A stretch of 64,000 nt of DNA. It comes from an uncultured Gemmatimonadota bacterium. GTDB lineage: Bacteria; JAAXHH01. Shown one piece after another: positions 29,109-37,864 of the stretch. A program made the position numbers and the translations under genes. Location: contig OX638340.1 in the NCBI GenBank assembly GCA_951812955.1, positions 1,856,001 through 1,920,000 on the forward strand. The letters are read 5' to 3'. Numbering within the stretch: position 1 is the first letter of the stretch; every line of letters begins with the position of its first letter. The notes under the pieces are model-generated. The model saw only the letters and a program-made list of their open reading frames with translations. It made no database searches and had not been told where the DNA came from.

Positions 29109-29180
29109 TTTGGGGCAGATTGTTCAAATCACGCTTGGAAGTACAGATATGCACAATTGGGTATCGGAAAGGAGCTTCAT

Positions 29181-29972
29181 ATGATCATCCACAAACTGGT
29201 CGCAGCCACTTGCATGATCGGTCTGGGAATGTACGGCTGTTCCTCTTCAGAGATTCCTGAGGACCCGCCGGTCCAGACCGAGCAGGTCGCATGGGGATAC
29301 GGTGACGAGAACGGACCGGACGTCTGGGGCCAGTTAAGCCCGGATTTCGCCTTATGTGCCGAGGGATCGCTGCAATCTCCGATCGACCTTGCGAATGCCA
29401 CGTCGTCGGAACTTCCCGAAATCGTCTTCAACTATAGTCCGTCGGCGGTGAATATCCACCATAACGGCCACACGATTGAAGTGGCGCCCACCGGGGAAAA
29501 CTCGATTGAGATCGATGGTGTACGTTACGCGCTTCTGCAGTTCCATTTCCACGCTCCGAGCGAGCACTCGGTGGACGGCCGGTTATTCGACATGGAAATG
29601 CACCTCGTGCACCGGAACGAAGAAGGCACCCTGGCAGTTATCGGAGTTCTGATCGAGCAGGGCGCCGACAATGCGACGTTCGGTCCCCTGTGGACGAATA
29701 TGCCGGACACGCCCGGCGTAACGAACAGCGTAGAGAACGCCACCGTTGATGCCGGCGACTTGCTGCCGGGCGACAGGCAGACCTATCGCTATGACGGCTC
29801 GTTGACTACACCGCCGTGTTCAGAAGGTGTCAAATGGAACGTGCTGACAACGCCCATTGAACTGTCCGAACCGCAGATCGCCGCTTTCAAAGCAGTTGTC
29901 CATGACAACAATCGGCCGGTACAGCCGCTGAATGAGCGTGAACTGCTTTCGGATGGTGCTGGAGAAGGCTAG
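29181..29972 (+). CDS. Alpha-class carbonic anhydrase, probable lipoprotein
   Basis: QSPIDL, zinc ligands in QFHFHAPSEH and EMHLVH, and GSLTTPPCSEGV. Lipobox-like LGMYGC. AAGGAG lies 6 nt upstream of the ATG at 29181; the ORF opens at 29157. Confidence 0.9.
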   Translation: MIIHKLVAATCMIGLGMYGCSSSEIPEDPPVQTEQVAWGYGDENGPDVWGQLSPDFALCAEGSLQSPIDLANATSSELPEIVFNYSPSAVNIHHNGHTIEVAPTGENSIEIDGVRYALLQFHFHAPSEHSVDGRLFDMEMHLVHRNEEGTLAVIGVLIEQGADNATFGPLWTNMPDTPGVTNSVENATVDAGDLLPGDRQTYRYDGSLTTPPCSEGVKWNVLTTPIELSEPQIAAFKAVVHDNNRPVQPLNERELLSDGAGEG

Positions 29973-30077: not shown

Positions 30078-30155
30078 TCAGCCCCGCCCCGTTGCAGCGC
30101 GGTCTCGAAATCAGCCCCGCCCCGCCAGCGGAATCCCGTACCGCTGCAGCGTGGT
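30078..30155. repeat. Degenerate echo of the MFS gene 3' end
   Basis: TCAGCCCCGCCCCG is exact at 30078-30091 and at 30111-30124, the latter containing the real stop. The flanking TTGCAGCGCGGT (30092-30103) resembles CTGCAGCGTGGT (30144-30155). Confidence 0.6.
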
Positions 30156-31415
30156 AATGAGCGTCGGGCGACCGAGGCGGATCCGGCCGTCGTTCAGCAG
30201 GTAGGAAAACAGATAGCCCGCACCGAGCATGATAATCCCTATGAGGAAACAGTACATGACTGCGCGATCGGGATAGACGTCTTTCAGGTACCCCACGTAC
30301 AGCGGACCGAAGATCCCCGCGGCGGCCCACGCGGTCAGCACCGCGCCGTAGATGGTGGACATCTTCTTCGTGCCGAACACGTCGAGGACGAAGGAAGGCA
30401 TGGTGGCGAAACCGCCGCCGAAGCAGAGCAGCACGTAGCAGACCAGCGCGGAGAAGACCCAGGGGTTCGTCTCGGTCATGAGTATGCCGAAGACTACCAT
30501 CTGGCTGCCGAGCAACACCCTGAAAACCGTAACCCTTCCGAACCGGTCGGACAGCAGTCCCCAGAACAGCCGCCCCAGTCCGTTGCAGATCGAGCTGACC
30601 GCGATGAGGGTAGCCCCGTACTCGGCCAGCATGGTGGGTTCGATTGAATCATCCGCCAGGCCCCAGATCTCCTGCAGAATTTCCGACTGGAAGCTGACGA
30701 CAGATATCCCGGCCGCAATGTTGAAGAAAAATACGATCCACATGAAGACGAACTGCGTCGTACCCAGGTAGGCGCGGGCGTACTTCGGTTCGTCGGCCTC
30801 ATCGGGATCGGTCGCGGTAGTCGACGGACCCGTGGGATCCGGCGGCGGGTCGGTCAGCGCCAGGCTGCAGGGGATGAGAATCAGGGCAAAGATGATACCG
30901 AGCCAGAAGAAGACTTCTGGCAATGCGCCCGCGGTCCGGACGATGAGGAAGGGCGCAAGGCCCTTGCTAAGCAGGAACGCCCCCACGCCGAATCCCATGA
31001 CGACGATCCCGGTAGCCAGGCCCTTGCGATCCGGAAACCACTTGGCCACGGTGGCGACCGGCGTGACGTACCCCAGCCCGATGCCCGCGCCGCCAATCAC
31101 TCCGTAGCCGAGATAGAACAACGGGATACTGTTCATCTCAAGTGCCAGGCCCGAGACCAGGTAACCGCACGCGAACAGGAAGCTGCCTATAAGGGCGAGT
31201 TTGCGCGGTCCCATCTTCGGCAGCATATTCCCGGCCCAGGCTGCCGATACGCCGAGGGTAAAGATGGCGATGCTGAAGGCCCAGGCCGTCTCGGTGTGGG
31301 TCCAACCGATCTGGCGCACCAGTATCGTCTGGAAGAAACTCCAGGCGTATACCGTGCCGAAGCAGACCTGCAGCGCCGTGCAGAAGAGCGCGATGGCGCT
31401 TCGGGGAATGCGCAT
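30111..31415 (-). CDS. MFS transporter, oxalate/formate antiporter (OFA)-like
   Basis: N-terminus ALFCTALQVCFGTVYAWSFFQ is typical of the OFA subfamily, with about 12 hydrophobic segments. AGGAGG lies 9 nt upstream of the ATG at 31415 and overlaps the upstream stop; the ORF opens at 31463. Confidence 0.8.
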   Translation of the reverse strand: MRIPRSAIALFCTALQVCFGTVYAWSFFQTILVRQIGWTHTETAWAFSIAIFTLGVSAAWAGNMLPKMGPRKLALIGSFLFACGYLVSGLALEMNSIPLFYLGYGVIGGAGIGLGYVTPVATVAKWFPDRKGLATGIVVMGFGVGAFLLSKGLAPFLIVRTAGALPEVFFWLGIIFALILIPCSLALTDPPPDPTGPSTTATDPDEADEPKYARAYLGTTQFVFMWIVFFFNIAAGISVVSFQSEILQEIWGLADDSIEPTMLAEYGATLIAVSSICNGLGRLFWGLLSDRFGRVTVFRVLLGSQMVVFGILMTETNPWVFSALVCYVLLCFGGGFATMPSFVLDVFGTKKMSTIYGAVLTAWAAAGIFGPLYVGYLKDVYPDRAVMYCFLIGIIMLGAGYLFSYLLNDGRIRLGRPTLITTLQRYGIPLAGRG

Positions 31416-31428
31416 CGCTTTTATCCTC

Positions 31429-32169
31429 CTACCGTGCCTTCTCCGGCGGCGCGCCGGGCGCACTGGAGTCGGGCGACTGATCGGAGATGTGGCGGAAGAG
31501 ACGGGCCAGATCGCCTACTTCGTCGTCCCGTCCAAGGAGATCGTCCGCCGAGGCTTCCGTTTCCTTGTTGCCCGCGATATTGACGGCGTAGGCGAGTAGC
31601 TCCGCGAGGGGTTTTGCTGCGAGATTGACGAGCCAGATCGAAGCAAGAACGCCCACGACGAGGAATATGCAAATGAGGATTACCTGCTGGCCGATGGCGC
31701 GCTGGATCTTGAGGGCGACCTCATCCTGGTCCATGCCTACGTGCACCGTGCCCGCCACGCCCGCCAGGATGGGACTGCCGACCTCCAGGAAATCACCCAG
31801 GCCGGGGATGCTTCGCTCCACGGGCTCGAGATTCGAATGATCGCTCGCGAGAATCTGCTCGGGTATGCCGGGCACGAAGGTATGGGCGAGATACTCGCCG
31901 TCCTCACTGGTGATGTAGATGTACCGGATACCCTGAATTTCTACGAACTGATCGATCATCGATTGCAGCGTCGCCAGGTTTCGGTTGAGCAGGATGTCGA
32001 CGCTGGCGTCAGCAACGCTCTTGGCGATGTTCTGACTGTTAGACTCGTATTCCGCCGTCAGTTGTGTATCTACGGTGTATATGCACAGGGCCGAGGTGGA
32101 GAGGACGATGACGCCGAAGAGCAGAAAGATCCCGAAACGGGTGCGCTGGAACAGTTTTTGTATTTTCAT
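31429..32169 (-). CDS. Membrane sensor-like protein: extracytoplasmic domain + TM + HAMP, no output domain
   Basis: TM1 (FGIFLLFGVIVLSTSALCIY), a ~140-aa periplasmic domain (IRYIYITSEDGEYLAHTF), TM2 and a HAMP-like segment (AAKPLAELLAYAVNIAGN...GRDDEVGDLARLFRHI). The protein ends about 20 aa later. Confidence 0.7.
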   Translation of the reverse strand: MKIQKLFQRTRFGIFLLFGVIVLSTSALCIYTVDTQLTAEYESNSQNIAKSVADASVDILLNRNLATLQSMIDQFVEIQGIRYIYITSEDGEYLAHTFVPGIPEQILASDHSNLEPVERSIPGLGDFLEVGSPILAGVAGTVHVGMDQDEVALKIQRAIGQQVILICIFLVVGVLASIWLVNLAAKPLAELLAYAVNIAGNKETEASADDLLGRDDEVGDLARLFRHISDQSPDSSAPGAPPEKAR

Positions 32170-32170
32170 G

Positions 32171-33550
32171 TCAGGAAAGCCAGCTTTGCCAGTCGTCCAG
32201 AGTAACGAACCGGCCCTCTTCTACGACGGTATAGTAGACGGTTTGCAGCCCCTGCCGGCGGTCAGGACCGAAGGAGACCCGCTCGCTGATCCCGAGATCG
32301 TAGTTTTCGACCGAGAACACCGCATCCTCCAACCCGTCCCTTTCTGGATTTCCTCCCAGGCGCCGCAGGATCTCGGTCATCAGCTTGGCGTCCAGAAAAC
32401 CCTCGAGACTGACGAAACTCTGCGGAAACGGGCTGTATGCCTCCTTGACGAGTTCCTCGGGAACTGCGGGATCATAGCGTTCCATCAGTTCGCGATATTC
32501 CTGCACTGCGGGAATGGACGTGTCCTCGTAGCTCGGGACCACCTGGGAGTTGACGAGATAACGTGAGTAGGTCTCCACGTCCTCTCCCAGATCGCCGAGC
32601 AATTGGAGCATGTTCTCGCTTCCCACGAATGAAAGGTTGGCGATGGGAACCCGCAGGTCGCGGTCGACGGCGTCGCGTGCGAAGGCCGCGCAGGCCGCGT
32701 ACGACCCGATGCAGATGACGGCGTCCGGAGAATTCGCCTTGAGGATTTCCACCTGTTCCCGCATGCTGCCCGTGAATCGCTGGCCCCTGCGGTAGGTCGC
32801 TTCGCCCGCGAGTCGTTCGCCGTGCCTGTCGAGTGCCGCCCGTACCCCGGCCCAGCCGCTTCTGCCGTAGGCATCCGCCTGGTAGAATACGCCGATTTTC
32901 CTTTTGCCCGCGGCGAGGAAATTGTTCACGAGTCCGGCTGTCTCCTGCCGGTAGGAAGCCCGGAGGTTGAAGGCGAAATCACCATACGGCGGTTCCCGCT
33001 GGGGCTGGGCGCCGGTGAAAGGGAAGAAAAGGTAGACCTGCTCATCCTGGAACTTCTTCAGAAGAGGAAGCACGCGCGTTACGGTCGGCGTGCCCACGTA
33101 CCCGAAGAGCAGGAACACGTTGTCCTCGAGCATGAGATTCATGGTGTTCCGTACACAGGGATCCGGCTGGTACCCGTCGTCGTATAGCTTCAGGGTGATC
33201 TTGCGACCCGCTACACCTCCGTTGTCGTTGACGTAGTTGAAATACGCCATCGCCCCGCGGTACAACTCGCTTCCAAGGCCCCTGGAAGGACCCGAAAAGG
33301 CGGCCGACATGCCCAGGACGATTTCATCGTCCGTGGCGCCTTCAAAGCCGGTTTCGATTTCCTGTGCTGAGACCATGTTCGCTCCTCCCAGTACGGTATC
33401 GGCGCCCCTCCAGCCCGCGCCGGAAACCGCCAACAATCCCGCGAGGCCTCGGCGCAGCATGGTCCTTCGCGTTAACAACGGCAAAGGAGACTCGGGTTTT
33501 TTCCCGGATTGACCGTTACCGTCACGCACATTCATACGTTTCCTCGTCAT
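32171..33550 (-). CDS. Type I periplasmic binding protein (Leu/Ile/Val-binding family), Tat-type signal
   Basis: Twin-arginine region LTRRTMLRRGLAGLLAVSGAG. The mature part has a Peripla_BP_6-like pattern (IVLGMSAAFSGPSRGLG...YDDGYQP...). Its stop lies 1 nt from the next start. Confidence 0.8.
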   Translation of the reverse strand: MTRKRMNVRDGNGQSGKKPESPLPLLTRRTMLRRGLAGLLAVSGAGWRGADTVLGGANMVSAQEIETGFEGATDDEIVLGMSAAFSGPSRGLGSELYRGAMAYFNYVNDNGGVAGRKITLKLYDDGYQPDPCVRNTMNLMLEDNVFLLFGYVGTPTVTRVLPLLKKFQDEQVYLFFPFTGAQPQREPPYGDFAFNLRASYRQETAGLVNNFLAAGKRKIGVFYQADAYGRSGWAGVRAALDRHGERLAGEATYRRGQRFTGSMREQVEILKANSPDAVICIGSYAACAAFARDAVDRDLRVPIANLSFVGSENMLQLLGDLGEDVETYSRYLVNSQVVPSYEDTSIPAVQEYRELMERYDPAVPEELVKEAYSPFPQSFVSLEGFLDAKLMTEILRRLGGNPERDGLEDAVFSVENYDLGISERVSFGPDRRQGLQTVYYTVVEEGRFVTLDDWQSWLS

Positions 33551-33598: not shown

Positions 33599-33732
33599 AG
33601 CCACGACCTGGCTGAAATGTTGACTAAACCGGAAACCGCTGAATTGAAGTCTGATATTCGAAATGTAGTGATTGTTACCGCGTCAGATGCAGTTGTGTTG
33701 AATCAAAATGATAAAACCGGAACAACTTCGTT

Positions 33733-33778
33733 GCAAGGTATTTTTGTGTCCTTGCTCAAGGTCCCGCGGGACTTTGAG
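33733..33778 (-). terminator. Two adjacent hairpins downstream of the aminotransferase gene
   Basis: Inverted repeat CTCAAGGTCCCG/CGGGACTTTGAG (33755-33778, one mismatch) and GCAAGG/CCTTGC (33733-33738 / 33750-33755). No clear U-tract on the minus strand. Confidence 0.3.
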
Positions 33779-33834: not shown

Positions 33835-35289
33835 TCAATCCTCTGCAGGGCCGTATCCGCTGTAAGGTTCCGGAAGACCCTTACTCGCCACATCTTCCAT
33901 CACATCGCAGAAGTAATCCAGCTCGGGCAACGTAGTGTACAGATTCGACGAGATACGGACCCACCGCCGGCTGGAGTCCGTCCTGTCGTAACGGCCCCGG
34001 GACGTCTGGATCTGATGTTCATCCCATAGATAGTCTCGCATCCCGGTCGGATCAACCCCATCAATCCCGACCCCGGCAATACAGCAACTCATTTCAGGGG
34101 CCGTCGGCGTGTATACTTGAATCCTCGGATGCGTCTGAAGCCGTTCCGCCCAGTGGTTCTTCAGATACCGGAGCCGTTCTTCCTTGCGTTTCGATCCAAT
34201 GGCGTTGTGGAAGGCGAGGGCTTCGCCGATGGCAAGAAACGGCGCATGGGACAGGGTTCCGACGGACTCGTATTTCAGCATGCTTGTTCTGGGGTTGTAA
34301 CGGCGGCTCCTGGCCGGACCGTACAACGGCTCTATCTTCTCAACGTGATCGCGTTTCATGTAAAGCATCCCGGTCCCTTTCGGCGCGCTGAGCCACTTGT
34401 GCAGACTCGTACCGTAATAATCGCAACCCAGTTCCGAGACCTTGAAGTCTAGTTGGCCGACCGCATGGGCGCCGTCCACGACGACTTCGATACCGTACCG
34501 GTGCGCCAGGTCGCAGATACGCCGGACCGGGAACACCTGTCCGGTGGTATAGGTGATGTGGGACACGAGGATCAATCGCGTCTTCGGTGTGATGGCGCGC
34601 TCGAAGATCCCCACCAGGTCGTCCAGCGACTGTGCGGGCAGCGGCACCGGCGCCTGAACCAGCTTGATCCCCTCCTGCTTTTCCCGGTTCCTCAAGGCGC
34701 TCACCATGGAAGAGTAATCATGCGTCGTGGTAAGTACCTCGTCTCCCGGGTTCAGGGGAATGCCGTACAGGACCGTCTTGAGCGCCTCGGTCGTATTGCG
34801 TACGAGGGCGATTTCATCGGGACTGCTCCCGAAGAGGCGCGCCAGGGACCTCTTCACGGTACTCTCCTGGTCTCTGGCCTTTTGAACGTACAGGCCGTAC
34901 GGTCCCTGTTCCTGTTCCCATATGTACCGCACAACCGCTTCCGTGACGACGCGGGGCGACGGGCAGGTATAGCCGTTGTCCAGGTTGATCAGGCTTCGGT
35001 TCACGGTAAAGGCCTGCTTGACTTCGCTCCAGAGCCCTTCGTCACGGGCGGCCTGCTGCGGCGTCAGGTCCGAGATTTCGCTTACCGCCGCCTCGACTCC
35101 CCGGAACGAAGCGGGACCGAGGAACGTTGCCAGCCCTGCGGTCATGCCGGCGGTTTTCAGGAAGTGACGCCGTTCCATGGCATTCGGGCGTTCCACGGGA
35201 CGGTCGTTTTCTTCGAGACGGTCGTTTTCTTCGTTTTGCGGTCTCATCGTGCTTCTCCTTTTCCGGGCCGTTTCTGCCATCCCGGTCAT
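33835..35289 (-). CDS. Class V aminotransferase/cysteine-desulfurase-like PLP enzyme with Tat signal
   Basis: Tat motif ERRHFLKTAGMTAGLATFLG. PLP-lysine region YGTSLHKWLSAPKGTG and DGAHAVG. Start ambiguous (M1, M15 or M38). Confidence 0.8.
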   Translation of the reverse strand: MTGMAETARKRRSTMRPQNEENDRLEENDRPVERPNAMERRHFLKTAGMTAGLATFLGPASFRGVEAAVSEISDLTPQQAARDEGLWSEVKQAFTVNRSLINLDNGYTCPSPRVVTEAVVRYIWEQEQGPYGLYVQKARDQESTVKRSLARLFGSSPDEIALVRNTTEALKTVLYGIPLNPGDEVLTTTHDYSSMVSALRNREKQEGIKLVQAPVPLPAQSLDDLVGIFERAITPKTRLILVSHITYTTGQVFPVRRICDLAHRYGIEVVVDGAHAVGQLDFKVSELGCDYYGTSLHKWLSAPKGTGMLYMKRDHVEKIEPLYGPARSRRYNPRTSMLKYESVGTLSHAPFLAIGEALAFHNAIGSKRKEERLRYLKNHWAERLQTHPRIQVYTPTAPEMSCCIAGVGIDGVDPTGMRDYLWDEHQIQTSRGRYDRTDSSRRWVRISSNLYTTLPELDYFCDVMEDVASKGLPEPYSGYGPAED

Positions 35290-35570: not shown

Positions 35571-36254
35571 ATGAACCCAAGCCTGCGACAGAGCATGAAC
35601 GAGTATTACGATGAACGAGCGGCCGAGTTCGACGAGATCTACACACTGGGCAAGCCGCCTGGTACGGTCACAGATCCGGAGCTATACAAAAAAGAGGCCC
35701 GGTCGCTGGCGCATCTCGTCCGGGTACACTGTCGCGGCAGCATCCTCGATATTCCCTGCGGAACGGGCTACTGGCTTCAGTTCTACGCCGCAAACTGTTC
35801 GGCGATCACGCTCGTGGACCAGTCGGAGAACATGCTGCGGGAAGGAAGAGAAAAAGCGCGCAAGCATGGCGTCGAGCCAATCACCACGTTCGTGGAGGCC
35901 GATGCCCTTGAAGTGCCGTTGGAAGACCGGTCATTCGATACCGTCCTGGTGGGCTTCTTCCTCAGTCACGTCACGGATAGCCAGATTGCGCTGTTTTTCA
36001 ATACACTGCGAAACCTGCTGAAACCGGACGGCCGCATGCTCATCCTGGACTCCAACTGGACCCGCTACCGCGGATCACGGCCCAAGGAAGGGACCACGTT
36101 GCGTACGCTCAATGACGGACGTAAATTCGAGATCTACAAGCGGTACTTTGAAGGGACCGATTTCGACCGGATGTCGGAGACCTGCGGAATGGATTTCACC
36201 GTGCGGCACGACGGCAAGCTTTACCTCGGCGTCACAGGCACGCTGCGTGATTGA
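35571..36254 (+). CDS. Class I SAM-dependent methyltransferase
   Basis: Motif I ILDIPCGTGYW, followed by LVDQSENML and LKPDGRMLILD. Confidence 0.8.
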   Translation: MNPSLRQSMNEYYDERAAEFDEIYTLGKPPGTVTDPELYKKEARSLAHLVRVHCRGSILDIPCGTGYWLQFYAANCSAITLVDQSENMLREGREKARKHGVEPITTFVEADALEVPLEDRSFDTVLVGFFLSHVTDSQIALFFNTLRNLLKPDGRMLILDSNWTRYRGSRPKEGTTLRTLNDGRKFEIYKRYFEGTDFDRMSETCGMDFTVRHDGKLYLGVTGTLRD

Positions 36255-36262
36255 ATCAGATT

Positions 36263-36973
36263 ATGCGAATCAAGCCAGTACCTGAAAAGCTGAAACCGGA
36301 GAACCTGAATCGGGCAACCATCGCCTATTACAACCTGCGGCAGGTTCATGGCGACATGCCTCACAGGATCCCAAGGGGGCCCTCGCCTGATCTGCCTGAC
36401 GAACAAGCCAGGATGATCCGGGAATCTCGGGAGGCCATGCGGGGCCGAAGGGTACTCGAGGTAGCGAGCGGTACGGGATCGGCGTCCAGGGAAATCGCGG
36501 TGACCGCAGTGTCTGTCACGGGCGTGGAGATCGCTTCCAATATGTTGAGCATCGCTAAAGAAAGCGATAACCCGTCCAACGTAAGTTACCTGGCTGGCGA
36601 CGCATTCGACCTTGAATCCATAGCGTCAGGTGAGCGCTTCGACGGTGGATTCGCATCTGGGTTTATGCACACCTGTCCTTCCTCGAGGTATTTGGAATTC
36701 CTGGATGGTTTTCACGGGCGGCTCGAGAAGGGCTCTACCGTATTCATGCGGTCGTCCAGACCGACAAGTCCTGATGCGGTAAGCAGGCTTTTCCGGGTTG
36801 AAGGTCACGCGGACCAGTTCATGACACGGCAGTTGTCCGATGGCTCCGAATATGTCATGGTCGAGAACGATCCGACCGAAGACGAACTCAGGCGCATATT
36901 CGAACCCCTGTCGAAGAACCTCATGGTGCATATCGGAAACTACTGGTGGTGGATCAGGTACGAACTGCCCTGA
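36263..36973 (+). CDS. Class I SAM-dependent methyltransferase
   Basis: Motif I VLEVASGTGSAS, followed by GVEIASNML. The ORF opens at a TTG at 36251 that overlaps the upstream stop; the ATG at 36263 is preferred. Confidence 0.7.
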   Translation: MRIKPVPEKLKPENLNRATIAYYNLRQVHGDMPHRIPRGPSPDLPDEQARMIRESREAMRGRRVLEVASGTGSASREIAVTAVSVTGVEIASNMLSIAKESDNPSNVSYLAGDAFDLESIASGERFDGGFASGFMHTCPSSRYLEFLDGFHGRLEKGSTVFMRSSRPTSPDAVSRLFRVEGHADQFMTRQLSDGSEYVMVENDPTEDELRRIFEPLSKNLMVHIGNYWWWIRYELP

Positions 36974-36982
36974 GGCGGCTTC

Positions 36983-37864
36983 ATGCATGAGATCGTGCAA
37001 CATGATCACGCGCAAGATCTCCTCACGCTTTCCGGACCCTGCCTGGAATCACGCGAGAGCGAGAACAACCTGCCTCTGGGCCTTGCGCATACGCTGGCCA
37101 GGGATCCCCGGTACTTCGGCGATGATCCACCACTGCTCCTGAGCATACTGGAAAACGGCATTCCCGTCGGCGTAGCGGTCAGGACGCCGCCGCGTAAAAT
37201 CGTCCTGAGCCGATTCGATGCCGAAATCGAAGCGGCCGTGAACCGGCTAGTCAAACACCTGCGCAGCAATCCAATGATGGTTCCCGGCATCGTCGGACCG
37301 GAACGGGAATCACAGTGTTTCGCGGACCGCTGGTCGGAAGCCATTCCCGGACTTGCCGCAACGATTTCCACTCGGTTGCGGGTATTCGAGGCGCGCAGAA
37401 TTGTCGACGTGCCTCTTGCGCCGGGCTGCCTGCGCCGGGCCGGGATGGAGGACCTTCCGTTAATGTCCGAGTGGATCGAGGGCTTCGCCCGGGAAGCGTT
37501 AGGAGAAAAATCCGATCCCGGCAAGGCGCTGGACAAAGCGGAGAAATACATTGAAGAAAGGAATCTGTTCGTCTGGGACCATGGGGGACCGGTATCGATT
37601 GCCAGGGAATCCCGGCCCATGAAGCACGGCACGGTGATCTCGCTGGTGTACACGCCACCGGAACGCCGCGATCGGGGCTACGCGACTTCGTGCGTATACC
37701 GGTTGACGAAGAAACTGCTTGCGGGACGGTATCAGTTCTGTAGCCTGTTTACCGATCTGGCGAATCCGACCTCCAACCACATCTATCCGAGGGTCGGTTA
37801 CGTACCCTTAGGCGATACTTTGGAATTCGATTTTGATCACGCGGCAGGACCTACCGAACGCTGA
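36983..37864 (+). CDS. GNAT-family acetyltransferase (two-lobed, COG3393-like)
   Basis: C-terminal GNAT core (LVYTPPERRDRGYATSCVYRLTKKLL...IYPRVGY) preceded by a ~150-aa N-terminal lobe. Confidence 0.6.
   Translation: MHEIVQHDHAQDLLTLSGPCLESRESENNLPLGLAHTLARDPRYFGDDPPLLLSILENGIPVGVAVRTPPRKIVLSRFDAEIEAAVNRLVKHLRSNPMMVPGIVGPERESQCFADRWSEAIPGLAATISTRLRVFEARRIVDVPLAPGCLRRAGMEDLPLMSEWIEGFAREALGEKSDPGKALDKAEKYIEERNLFVWDHGGPVSIARESRPMKHGTVISLVYTPPERRDRGYATSCVYRLTKKLLAGRYQFCSLFTDLANPTSNHIYPRVGYVPLGDTLEFDFDHAAGPTER

Follow-up and report, generated by a model that had tools for sequence, protein, structure and literature searches.

Three genes at the locus

The window analysed in this study is a stretch of 64,000 nucleotides (nt) from an uncultured Gemmatimonadota bacterium (GenBank assembly GCA_951812955.1, contig OX638340.1, positions 1,856,001 to 1,920,000). 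On its minus strand, three genes run head to tail in the order periplasmic binding protein (PBP), small membrane protein (called here the middle protein, transducer or sensor) and carrier of the major facilitator superfamily (MFS). This trio, which we tentatively read as a carrier under the control of a binding protein, comprises the following features.

32171..33550, minus strand: gene for a PBP of the Peripla_BP_6 family, 459 amino acids (aa), with a possible alternative start at Met29
31429..32169, minus strand: middle gene, encoding a 246-aa membrane transducer with sCache_3_2 and HAMP domains and no output domain
31425..31430, minus strand: ribosome-binding site (AGGAGG) for the MFS gene, which overlaps the TAG stop of the transducer gene, read from the sequence
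30111..31415, minus strand: MFS carrier gene, 434 aa, 12 transmembrane (TM) segments, OFA / bacterial monocarboxylate transporter (MCT) type

The stop codon of the PBP gene (TGA, 32173-32171) is separated by a single base (32170) from the ATG of the middle gene at 32169, and the stop codon of the middle gene (TAG, 31431-31429) is followed after 13 nt by the ATG of the MFS gene at 31415. An automated list of open reading frames (ORFs) placed the MFS start at a GTG at 31463; the ATG at 31415 is the likely start, because the gene calls of relatives are 433 aa long. An earlier note on this DNA had given the coordinates of the ORFs, the spacings of 1 and 13 nt and the overlap between the AGGAGG and the stop codon, and all of these were found to be correct when the sequence was read again. 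Among 135 trio loci, the gap between the PBP and sensor genes was 1 nt in 62 and -4 nt in 40 (together 102 of 135), and the gap between the sensor and MFS genes had a median of 14 nt. The tight spacing of the genes is not a matter of chance, because PBP-to-sensor gaps of 1 or -4 nt recur across these loci, and the form of the junctions suggests translational coupling.

Conservation and linkage of the trio

We searched 1.84 billion representative sequences exhaustively with the middle protein and obtained 1591 relatives; at least 812 homologues share its length of about 245 aa and show 63-95% identity. The neighbourhood of the gene was then examined in two surveys. In the genome survey, 74 loci from one-genome-per-species contigs were searched by tblastn with all three proteins, which were present in the same order and with the same spacing in 71 of the 71 informative loci. 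The metagenome survey, based on an alignment of eight middle-protein sequences and the motif [ILV][AS]HTFVPG[IV], yielded 80 further loci with identities of 53-99%, and here the trio was complete wherever the flank sufficed. Genomes and metagenome contigs together amount to about 150 trio loci, in which the identity of the middle protein falls to 36%. The lower end of this range includes four distant short homologues (P0126, P0136, P0152 and P0125, 36-48% identical to the middle protein). A PBP_6 gene lies upstream and a confirmed MFS_1 gene downstream of P0126, P0152 and P0125, and P0136 is flanked by an upstream ORF and a large downstream ORF, neither of which was assigned to a family; the junctions at the distant homologues are mostly 4-nt overlaps. 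Conservation of the trio in other genomes was a test that the earlier note had set for its proposal, and the trio proved to be complete in every one of the roughly 150 loci with enough flank, with a single locus, L110, rearranged.

The pairwise identities of the three proteins are correlated with each other (r = 0.89-0.94, 99 loci), and because of this correlation we conclude that the three proteins evolve together. No conserved neighbour was found outside the trio among the surveyed loci, and no signalling gene is conserved in the approximately 150 loci; the commonest neighbour clusters occur in 16 loci or fewer and follow lineage. The trio is a self-contained module.

We also considered reading the substrate from the gene context, and rejected this approach because the neighbours are lineage-specific and point to no common pathway: they include a class-V aminotransferase with a twin-arginine translocation (Tat) signal, an alpha-carbonic anhydrase, a HAD hydrolase and, in Acidobacteriota, an alcohol dehydrogenase. 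The most catabolic-looking context was met in Binatia, in which 13-15 loci of the type of L038 (2264-10147) hold an apparent operon on one strand with an enoyl-CoA hydratase, a class-III aminotransferase, the trio and an Amidohydro_3 enzyme. At L084 (2450-12155), a distant trio with a middle protein of 48% identity lies within a thiamine biosynthesis cluster, preceded by a ThiD-like and two ThiE-like genes and followed by ThiC, ThiO, ThiS and ThiG; no thiamine pyrophosphate (TPP) riboswitch was detected at this locus by Rfam at gathering thresholds. Two candidate natural fusions of the transducer with the MFS carrier, P0265 (638 aa) and P0129 (344 aa), were rejected, as both are frameshifted assemblies.

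The middle protein as a probable Cache-HAMP transducer without an output domain

The middle protein appears in public records as a 'hypothetical protein' or under an automatic kinase name, and the earlier note had described it as a HAMP-only membrane protein. This label was wrong in detail, since Pfam identifies a periplasmic sCache_3_2 domain (49 bits). The protein begins with TM1 (about aa 12-33), followed by the periplasmic domain (aa 34-157), TM2 (about aa 160-182), the HAMP domain (aa 179-230) and a tail (aa 232-246). The two domains are placed on the DNA as follows.

31699..32070, minus strand: periplasmic sCache_3_2 domain of the transducer (aa 34-157), from Pfam, alignment and an AlphaFold2 (AF2) model
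31480..31635, minus strand: HAMP domain (aa 179-230), with the first amphipathic sequence (AS1) AAKPLAELLAYAV, a long connector and the second (AS2) DDEVGDLARLF

Motifs found throughout the family in the sCache domain are AHTFVP and PILAGxAGxVHVGMD, and residues Q69, Y83, H96, T97, F98, P103 and G140 are invariant throughout the family, whether its members are short or long. ChvG and DcuS-type kinases also matched weakly in their N-terminal parts. The HAMP assignment was made because homologues that are 35-45% identical over this stretch exceed the Pfam HAMP threshold and because a helix-connector-helix structure is predicted; in addition, the positions typical of HAMP domains, P187, L191, D216, E217, G219 and L221, are conserved in the transducer.

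In the AF2 model (mean pLDDT 78), a helix at residues 3-62 runs through TM1 into the periplasm, a five-stranded PAS/Cache sheet follows at 81-147, and a long helix at 148-199 returns through TM2 into the first HAMP helix, after which come the connector and the second HAMP helix (217-230). Residues 232-246 are predicted to form a disordered tail, which is variable among homologues. The protein ends 16 aa past AS2 and has no HisKA/HATPase, MCPsignal, GGDEF or SpoIIE domain. A sequence search for a solved structure of the middle protein returned only chance matches to ribosomal protein S2. The best Foldseek match in the Protein Data Bank (PDB) was a full-length WalK model (E 3e-9, TMq 0.64, covering all 246 residues), followed by the extracytoplasmic domains of WalK/YycG, CitA, DcuS and LapD. 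With its layout of TM1, sCache, TM2 and HAMP, the middle protein thus corresponds to a sensor kinase reduced to its input half, with nothing after the HAMP domain.

Longer homologues pair the same sensor with other outputs

Residues 1-230 of the transducer can be aligned with the N-terminal regions of longer proteins (400-1200 aa), to which they are 35-45% identical. According to Pfam, these long relatives are histidine kinases, hybrid kinases, one methyl-accepting chemotaxis protein (MCP) and SpoIIE phosphatases, and most of them consist of sCache_3_2, HAMP and an output domain. Four long homologues had usable flank, namely the MCP P0143, the SpoIIE phosphatase P0151, the histidine kinase P0144 and the hybrid histidine kinase P0146. 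In all four, a Peripla_BP_6 gene lies upstream and overlaps the sensor gene by 4 nt; their PBPs are 56-61% identical to that of the window and their sensor modules 36-41%, and no OFA-type MFS gene was found near any of the four. Because similar PBPs precede kinase, MCP and SpoIIE sensors in 4/4 cases, the PBP and the sCache-HAMP protein make up a general two-gene sensing cassette with exchangeable outputs. Sequence comparison shows that the middle protein descends from PBP-driven receptors, and in the trio the output domain is missing, with a separate carrier gene standing in the operon instead.

Both HAMP sequences, AS1 and AS2, are conserved in the short form, and the part after AS2 varies. 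When short and long sensors were compared at matched overall divergence (30-50%), conservation was 0.43 in the short and 0.30 in the long sensors for TM1 and 0.35 vs 0.26 for TM2, whereas it was equal in the sCache domain (0.46 vs 0.45). The greater conservation of the TM segments in the short sensors is suggestive, and would fit an added contact inside the membrane.

One kinase-type pair of PBP and sensor, at L169 (1-11181), lies amid NiFe-hydrogenase genes (FlpD-like, small and large subunits) and a HycI maturation protease gene; a second hybrid kinase is encoded at the same locus, as is a response regulator that carries a guanylate-cyclase domain.

The periplasmic binding protein

The PBP matches the Pfam family Peripla_BP_6 (PF13458) with 133 bits, is automatically annotated as a 'branched-chain amino acid ABC substrate-binding protein' and is 41-100% identical across trios. 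Its closest solved structures by sequence are 4kv7 (E 1e-45) and 3lop. The AF2 model (pLDDT 80.7, pTM 0.85) gave 4kv7 (TM-score 0.80), 3lop and 4m88 as the best Foldseek matches, for none of which a ligand is named, and many LivJ-like substrate-binding proteins (SBPs) were also among the matches; no literature on 4kv7 or 3lop was found. The next fold neighbours bind 3-hydroxybenzoate, fatty acid, other aromatic acids, leucine and urea. Reading the ligand from the fold was rejected as an approach, because the nearest neighbours with a bound ligand are only 16-20% identical to the PBP and their ligands are mixed. Members of the Peripla_BP_6 family bind amino acids and also monocarboxylates (PMC10443332).

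The N-terminus of the PBP carries the following signal.

33410..33475, minus strand: Tat-like signal peptide of the PBP (LTRRTMLRRGLAGLLAVSGAGW, residues 26-47), read from the sequence

Where the twin-arginine motif reads S/T-R-R-x-F-L-K before a hydrophobic region, the N-terminus contains TRRTML followed by GLAGLLAVSGAGW, and the consensus of the homologue alignment is TRRSLxRxGLAALL. The motif [STAGN]RRx[FLIVMA][LIVMA] (TRRxxL followed by a hydrophobic stretch) was found in 79 of 120 PBP homologues, and the Pfam model TAT_signal gave no significant match for the PBP. Export of the PBP through the Tat pathway, which the earlier note had taken as given, is plausible.

The MFS carrier

The carrier matches Pfam MFS_1 with 122 bits. 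Among the NCBIfam models, that of the SfMCT L-lactate MFS transporter (NF049980) scored 334 bits, above its cut-off of 320, and the models of the OFA family remained below their cut-offs. A phmmer search against the PDB identified SfMCT (6g9x, E 2e-35) and OxlT (8hpj, E 4e-24), and the identity to SfMCT is about 30%. In SfMCT, which was characterised as a stand-alone carrier, Y119, N276 and R280 bind and orient the carboxylate of the substrate, L145 and F335 confine it, and Y331 acts as a gate (PMC6573034). The equivalent residues in the window, in the order Y119, N276, R280, L145, F335 and Y331, are Y116, N278, R282, F142, F336 and F332. Like SfMCT and OxlT, the trio carrier is a 12-TM MFS protein, and the residues matching Y119, N276, R280 and F335 are identical, whereas it is distant from SfMCT and has phenylalanine in place of both L145 and Y331; phenylalanine at the latter position is the state of human MCT1. 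The residues of the predicted carboxylate site are invariant or differ in only 1 of the 122 unique trio carriers, and the carboxylate-binding arginine in TM8 (R282), the asparagine that positions it (N278) and the TM4 tyrosine Y116 are kept in all 122. Because of its homology to SfMCT, the carrier probably has a substrate of the monocarboxylate type.

Beyond TM12 the carrier has a cytoplasmic C-terminal extension (LLNDGRIRLGRPTLITTLQRYGIP..., residues ~402-434, 30114-30212). The block at residues 401-420 is about 77% conserved across trios and might be where the HAMP bundle touches the carrier.

A proposed binding-protein-controlled carrier and the alternative explanations

We propose that the trio is one functional unit, a monocarboxylate carrier controlled by a binding protein, and assign this reading a probability of roughly 0.45. 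The exported PBP would capture a small ligand in the periplasm, probably an anion bearing a carboxylate, and the loaded PBP would dock on the sCache domain of a dimeric transducer with two TM segments. The resulting conformational change would run through TM2 to the HAMP bundle, the path it takes in those relatives of the sensor that are kinases, chemoreceptors or phosphatases. Because the transducer has no cytoplasmic output domain, the signal would reach the co-translated MFS carrier laterally, through the TM helices, the HAMP bundle or both, and the transport of monocarboxylates would be switched or tuned. The sequence data show the order of the genes, their tight junctions, the domain architectures, the homology to pairs of PBP and sensor that have outputs, and the conserved carboxylate site. 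In the scheme above we infer the docking of the PBP on the sCache domain, the contact between transducer and carrier, which way control runs and what the ligand is. The earlier note had offered two readings, a secondary transporter that depends on the binding protein and a ligand-sensing module that gates the carrier. The evidence leans towards the latter, because the same pair of PBP and sensor has kinases, a chemoreceptor or a SpoIIE phosphatase as its output in other genomes; a true hand-off of substrate would be less likely. Retention of the HAMP domain is also explained by the sensing module, since the pair of PBP and sensor is a signalling module.

Several points weigh against this proposal. 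The junction between the sensor and MFS genes is looser than that between the PBP and sensor genes and reaches a few hundred nt in some lineages. At L110 (697-4178), the sole exception to the gene order of the trio, the MFS and PBP genes lie on the opposite strand and diverge from the middle gene. No natural fusion of the transducer with an MFS carrier was found among the relatives. The contrast in TM conservation rests on few independent lineages, the fold neighbours of the PBP with a bound ligand are remote from it (16-20% identity) and diverse in what they bind, and the Pfam HAMP model (PF00672) matches the transducer itself with 15.2 bits vs a cut-off of 25 (E 0.028, model positions 1-49 of 53).

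The main rival, which is physically close to the proposal above, is a direct transfer of substrate from the PBP to the MFS carrier in its outward-open state; the sCache-HAMP protein would then serve for docking, as a structural adaptor like DctQ or TctB, and would not relay a signal. The same data on conservation and coupling would be expected from such a system, in which the very high conservation of the PBP would also find a place; the PBP and the carrier would share a ligand class, because members of Peripla_BP_6 are known to bind monocarboxylates (PMC10443332), and new classes of SBP-dependent secondary transporters are still emerging (PMC12344293). A pure docking adaptor, however, would have no need of a conserved cytoplasmic HAMP domain, and a similar pair of PBP and sensor occurs without an adjacent transporter when an output domain is present. 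We regard direct delivery as unlikely, with rather less than half the weight of the main proposal; if true, it would add a further class beside TRAP, TTT and TAXI-GltS.

A second possibility is that the three genes are co-expressed and work separately: the MFS carrier would import its substrate, while the PBP and the short sensor would modulate a full-length paralogue, as a heterodimer or decoy, or buffer the PBP. Long paralogues that share the sensor module and come with closely similar PBPs are widespread, dimerisation through the HAMP domain and the TM helices would permit mixed dimers, and the looseness of the sensor-to-MFS junction is in keeping with separate roles. Nevertheless, wherever the flank sufficed the short sensor was accompanied by the MFS gene, which was not seen beside any of the long sensors, no paralogue of the middle protein was found elsewhere in the 64-kb window, and the cassette appears to move across phyla as a self-contained unit between unrelated flanks, which is hard to square with dependence on a kinase encoded by the host. 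Such a decoy is improbable in our estimation.

The direction of signalling might also be the reverse, with the MFS carrier as a co-sensor or transceptor that reports flux to the transducer and the HAMP domain signalling to a soluble partner. The sCache_3_2 domain is of the DcuS/CitA type, and complexes of transporters with sensors are established for DctA or DcuB with DcuS and for UhpC with UhpB. Against this stand the lack of an output domain, the lack of a conserved signalling neighbour in about 150 loci and a tail after the HAMP domain that is variable and disordered, so that we give a reversed signal little credence. Both the decoy and the co-sensor are disfavoured because of the strict linkage to the carrier, the lack of a conserved signalling neighbour and the apparent mobility of the cassette.

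Finally, the assignment to Peripla_BP_6 and the automatic annotations as an ABC substrate-binding protein could mean that the PBP is an orphan binding protein of a LivJ-type ABC importer and that its adjacency to the other two genes has no functional meaning, which is very hard to believe given that the trio is kept in about 150 loci across phyla with unrelated flanks and that a scan for Walker A and LSGGQ motifs picked out ABC ATPase-like ORFs in only 2 of the 104 loci that span 8 kb or more, and none in the 64-kb window. The same scan bears out the statement of the earlier note that the window has no LivHMGF-type ABC importer. The note had also named conserved liv-type ABC genes in relatives as a finding that would speak against its proposal, and ABC genes of this type are not conserved partners of the trio.

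Comparison with known systems

Receptors stimulated by SBPs are established, and include LuxP/LuxQ, TorT/TorS, BasB/BasT (with a Peripla_BP_6 SBP) and AioX/AioS (with an sCache-like sensor) (PMC8050422). The trio resembles these systems in that the PBP gene adjoins and is coupled with one that encodes a receptor made up of an extracytoplasmic sensor domain, two TM helices and a HAMP domain, and differs from them in that the receptor stops after the HAMP domain and a separate MFS gene is present in every locus with enough flank. To our knowledge, partnerships of a binding protein with a transporter comprise the ABC, TRAP and TTT systems and, since 2025, TAXI-GltS. Like TRAP (DctPQM), TTT (TctABC) and TAXI-GltS, the trio encodes an SBP and a small membrane protein together with a gradient-driven carrier and no ATPase. 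Unlike in those three, its SBP belongs to Peripla_BP_6 and not to the DctP, TAXI or TctC families, and its carrier has the MFS fold and not that of DctM, TctA or GltS; the accessory protein, compared with TRAP and TTT, is a Cache-HAMP signalling module and not DctQ or TctB. With the LIV-I ABC importer (LivJ/K with LivHMGF), the trio shares the type I fold of Peripla_BP_6 and not the linkage to an ABC permease and ATPase.

Signalling by contact between membrane proteins takes place in the co-sensing complexes of DcuS with DctA or DcuB, of CitA, of UhpC with UhpB and of BceS with BceAB. As in the DcuS and CitA complexes, a PAS/Cache sensor (by fold similarity in Foldseek) is tied to a carboxylate carrier in the trio; the sensors of co-sensing complexes, in contrast, are full kinases for which the transporter is the input, whereas the trio has no kinase and has the PBP as its input. 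HtrII, a 2-TM HAMP transducer, packs laterally on sensory rhodopsin II and exchanges a conformational signal with it in the membrane. This is an analogy only, since the proteins are unrelated and there the polytopic protein signals to the transducer, which in turn signals to CheA, whereas the transducer of the trio has no downstream domain.

The trio thereby fails a defining feature of each class compared, be it the output domain, the SBP family and carrier fold, or the kinase. We found no published description of a system of PBP, HAMP protein and MFS carrier in the literature. MFS carriers are, as far as we know, treated as stand-alone machines, and we know of none that depends on an SBP. It is quite possible, if somewhat less likely than not, that the trio contains the first MFS carrier to depend on or be switched by a PBP, by way of a Cache-HAMP transducer that lost its kinase. 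If this is true, the input module of a receptor can be wired straight to a carrier, a high-affinity sensor in the periplasm can govern transport by an MFS carrier, and a transporter as the direct output of a receptor would be a new type of output in bacterial transmembrane signalling. The module is abundant, lacks a functional annotation and is widespread in uncultured bacteria.

Distribution and probable spread among sponge symbionts

The closest relative of the window's trio, L089, was found in MKWU01 and is 98-99% identical in all three proteins, and many other trio loci come from LXNI01 and LXNJ01. These three datasets are cited in two metagenome studies of Mediterranean sponges, namely Aplysina aerophoba, Petrosia ficiformis and Sarcotragus foetidus (PMC5099237, PMC5649159). 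The contig with P0001 comes from a sample coded ROBB21. We take this code to refer to the reef-sponge survey of metagenome-assembled genomes (MAGs) by Robbins et al. The MAGs that bear the trio are labelled Latescibacterota, Gemmatimonadota, Acidobacteriota, Binatia, Thermodesulfobacteriota, Alphaproteobacteria and Gammaproteobacteria, including Poriferihabitaceae.

In the MAGs of sponge symbionts (L001-L071), which by their labels belong to at least five phyla, the three proteins are 63-95% identical and the flanks are unrelated. Mis-binning does not explain this pattern, because many of the carriers of the trio are complete chromosomes, and one chromosome, OZ241920.1, holds two copies (L005 and L033). 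Because identity is high across phyla despite the unrelated flanks, horizontal spread of the cassette among sponge symbionts is likely and is the most economical reading. The cross-phylum identity makes it likely that a useful function in uptake or exchange has spread within the holobiont. In addition, distant trios (53-61%) were found on JGI metagenome contigs outside the sponge assemblies, and one related cluster includes a Pseudolabrys MAG. We presume from their identifiers that some of the JGI samples come from soil, rhizosphere and freshwater, in which case the module also occurs beyond sponges.

Upstream region and other features of the window

A gap of 285 nt lies upstream of the PBP gene. 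A consensus promoter scan of this region revealed one site, which by count is no more than expected by chance; its hexamers, TTGCAA and TATCAT, fall in the best-conserved block of an upstream alignment of 16 loci.

33736-33708, minus strand: promoter-like site (TTGCAA, 17 nt, TATCAT) from the consensus scan, within the conserved block 33700..33745

Transcription of the trio probably starts from a promoter of its own, independent of the aminotransferase gene upstream. A search with Rfam at gathering thresholds, which covered the window and seven of the loci including L084, found one tRNA only and no riboswitch or other known RNA.

The gene directly upstream of the trio on the same strand (33835-35289, minus strand) encodes an aminotransferase of class V that carries a Tat-type signal. 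Among NCBIfam models it comes closest to PvdN, a periplasmic enzyme of pyoverdine tailoring, at 161 bits, far below the cut-off, and it stands beside the trio only in the window's own lineage (about 12 loci). Divergent from it, at 35571-37864 (plus strand), are genes for two SAM methyltransferases and an FR47/GNAT-like acetyltransferase. This cluster resembles a small cluster for the tailoring of small molecules, and in the relative L075 (169-3921) it extends to a cupin and a PhyH-family dioxygenase.

On the other side of the trio, a gene for a eukaryotic-type (alpha) carbonic anhydrase (29157-29972, plus strand) is convergent with the MFS gene, an arrangement that recurs in about 14 loci of two sublineages, such as L010 and L016. 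In mammals, MCTs and carbonic anhydrase form a 'transport metabolon'. The carbonic anhydrase beside an MCT-like carrier recalls this metabolon, and coincidence is equally possible. Finally, the G+C content of the window is 0.50-0.53 at about 2-12 kb vs 0.55-0.65 elsewhere, and this part of the window may be a compositional island.

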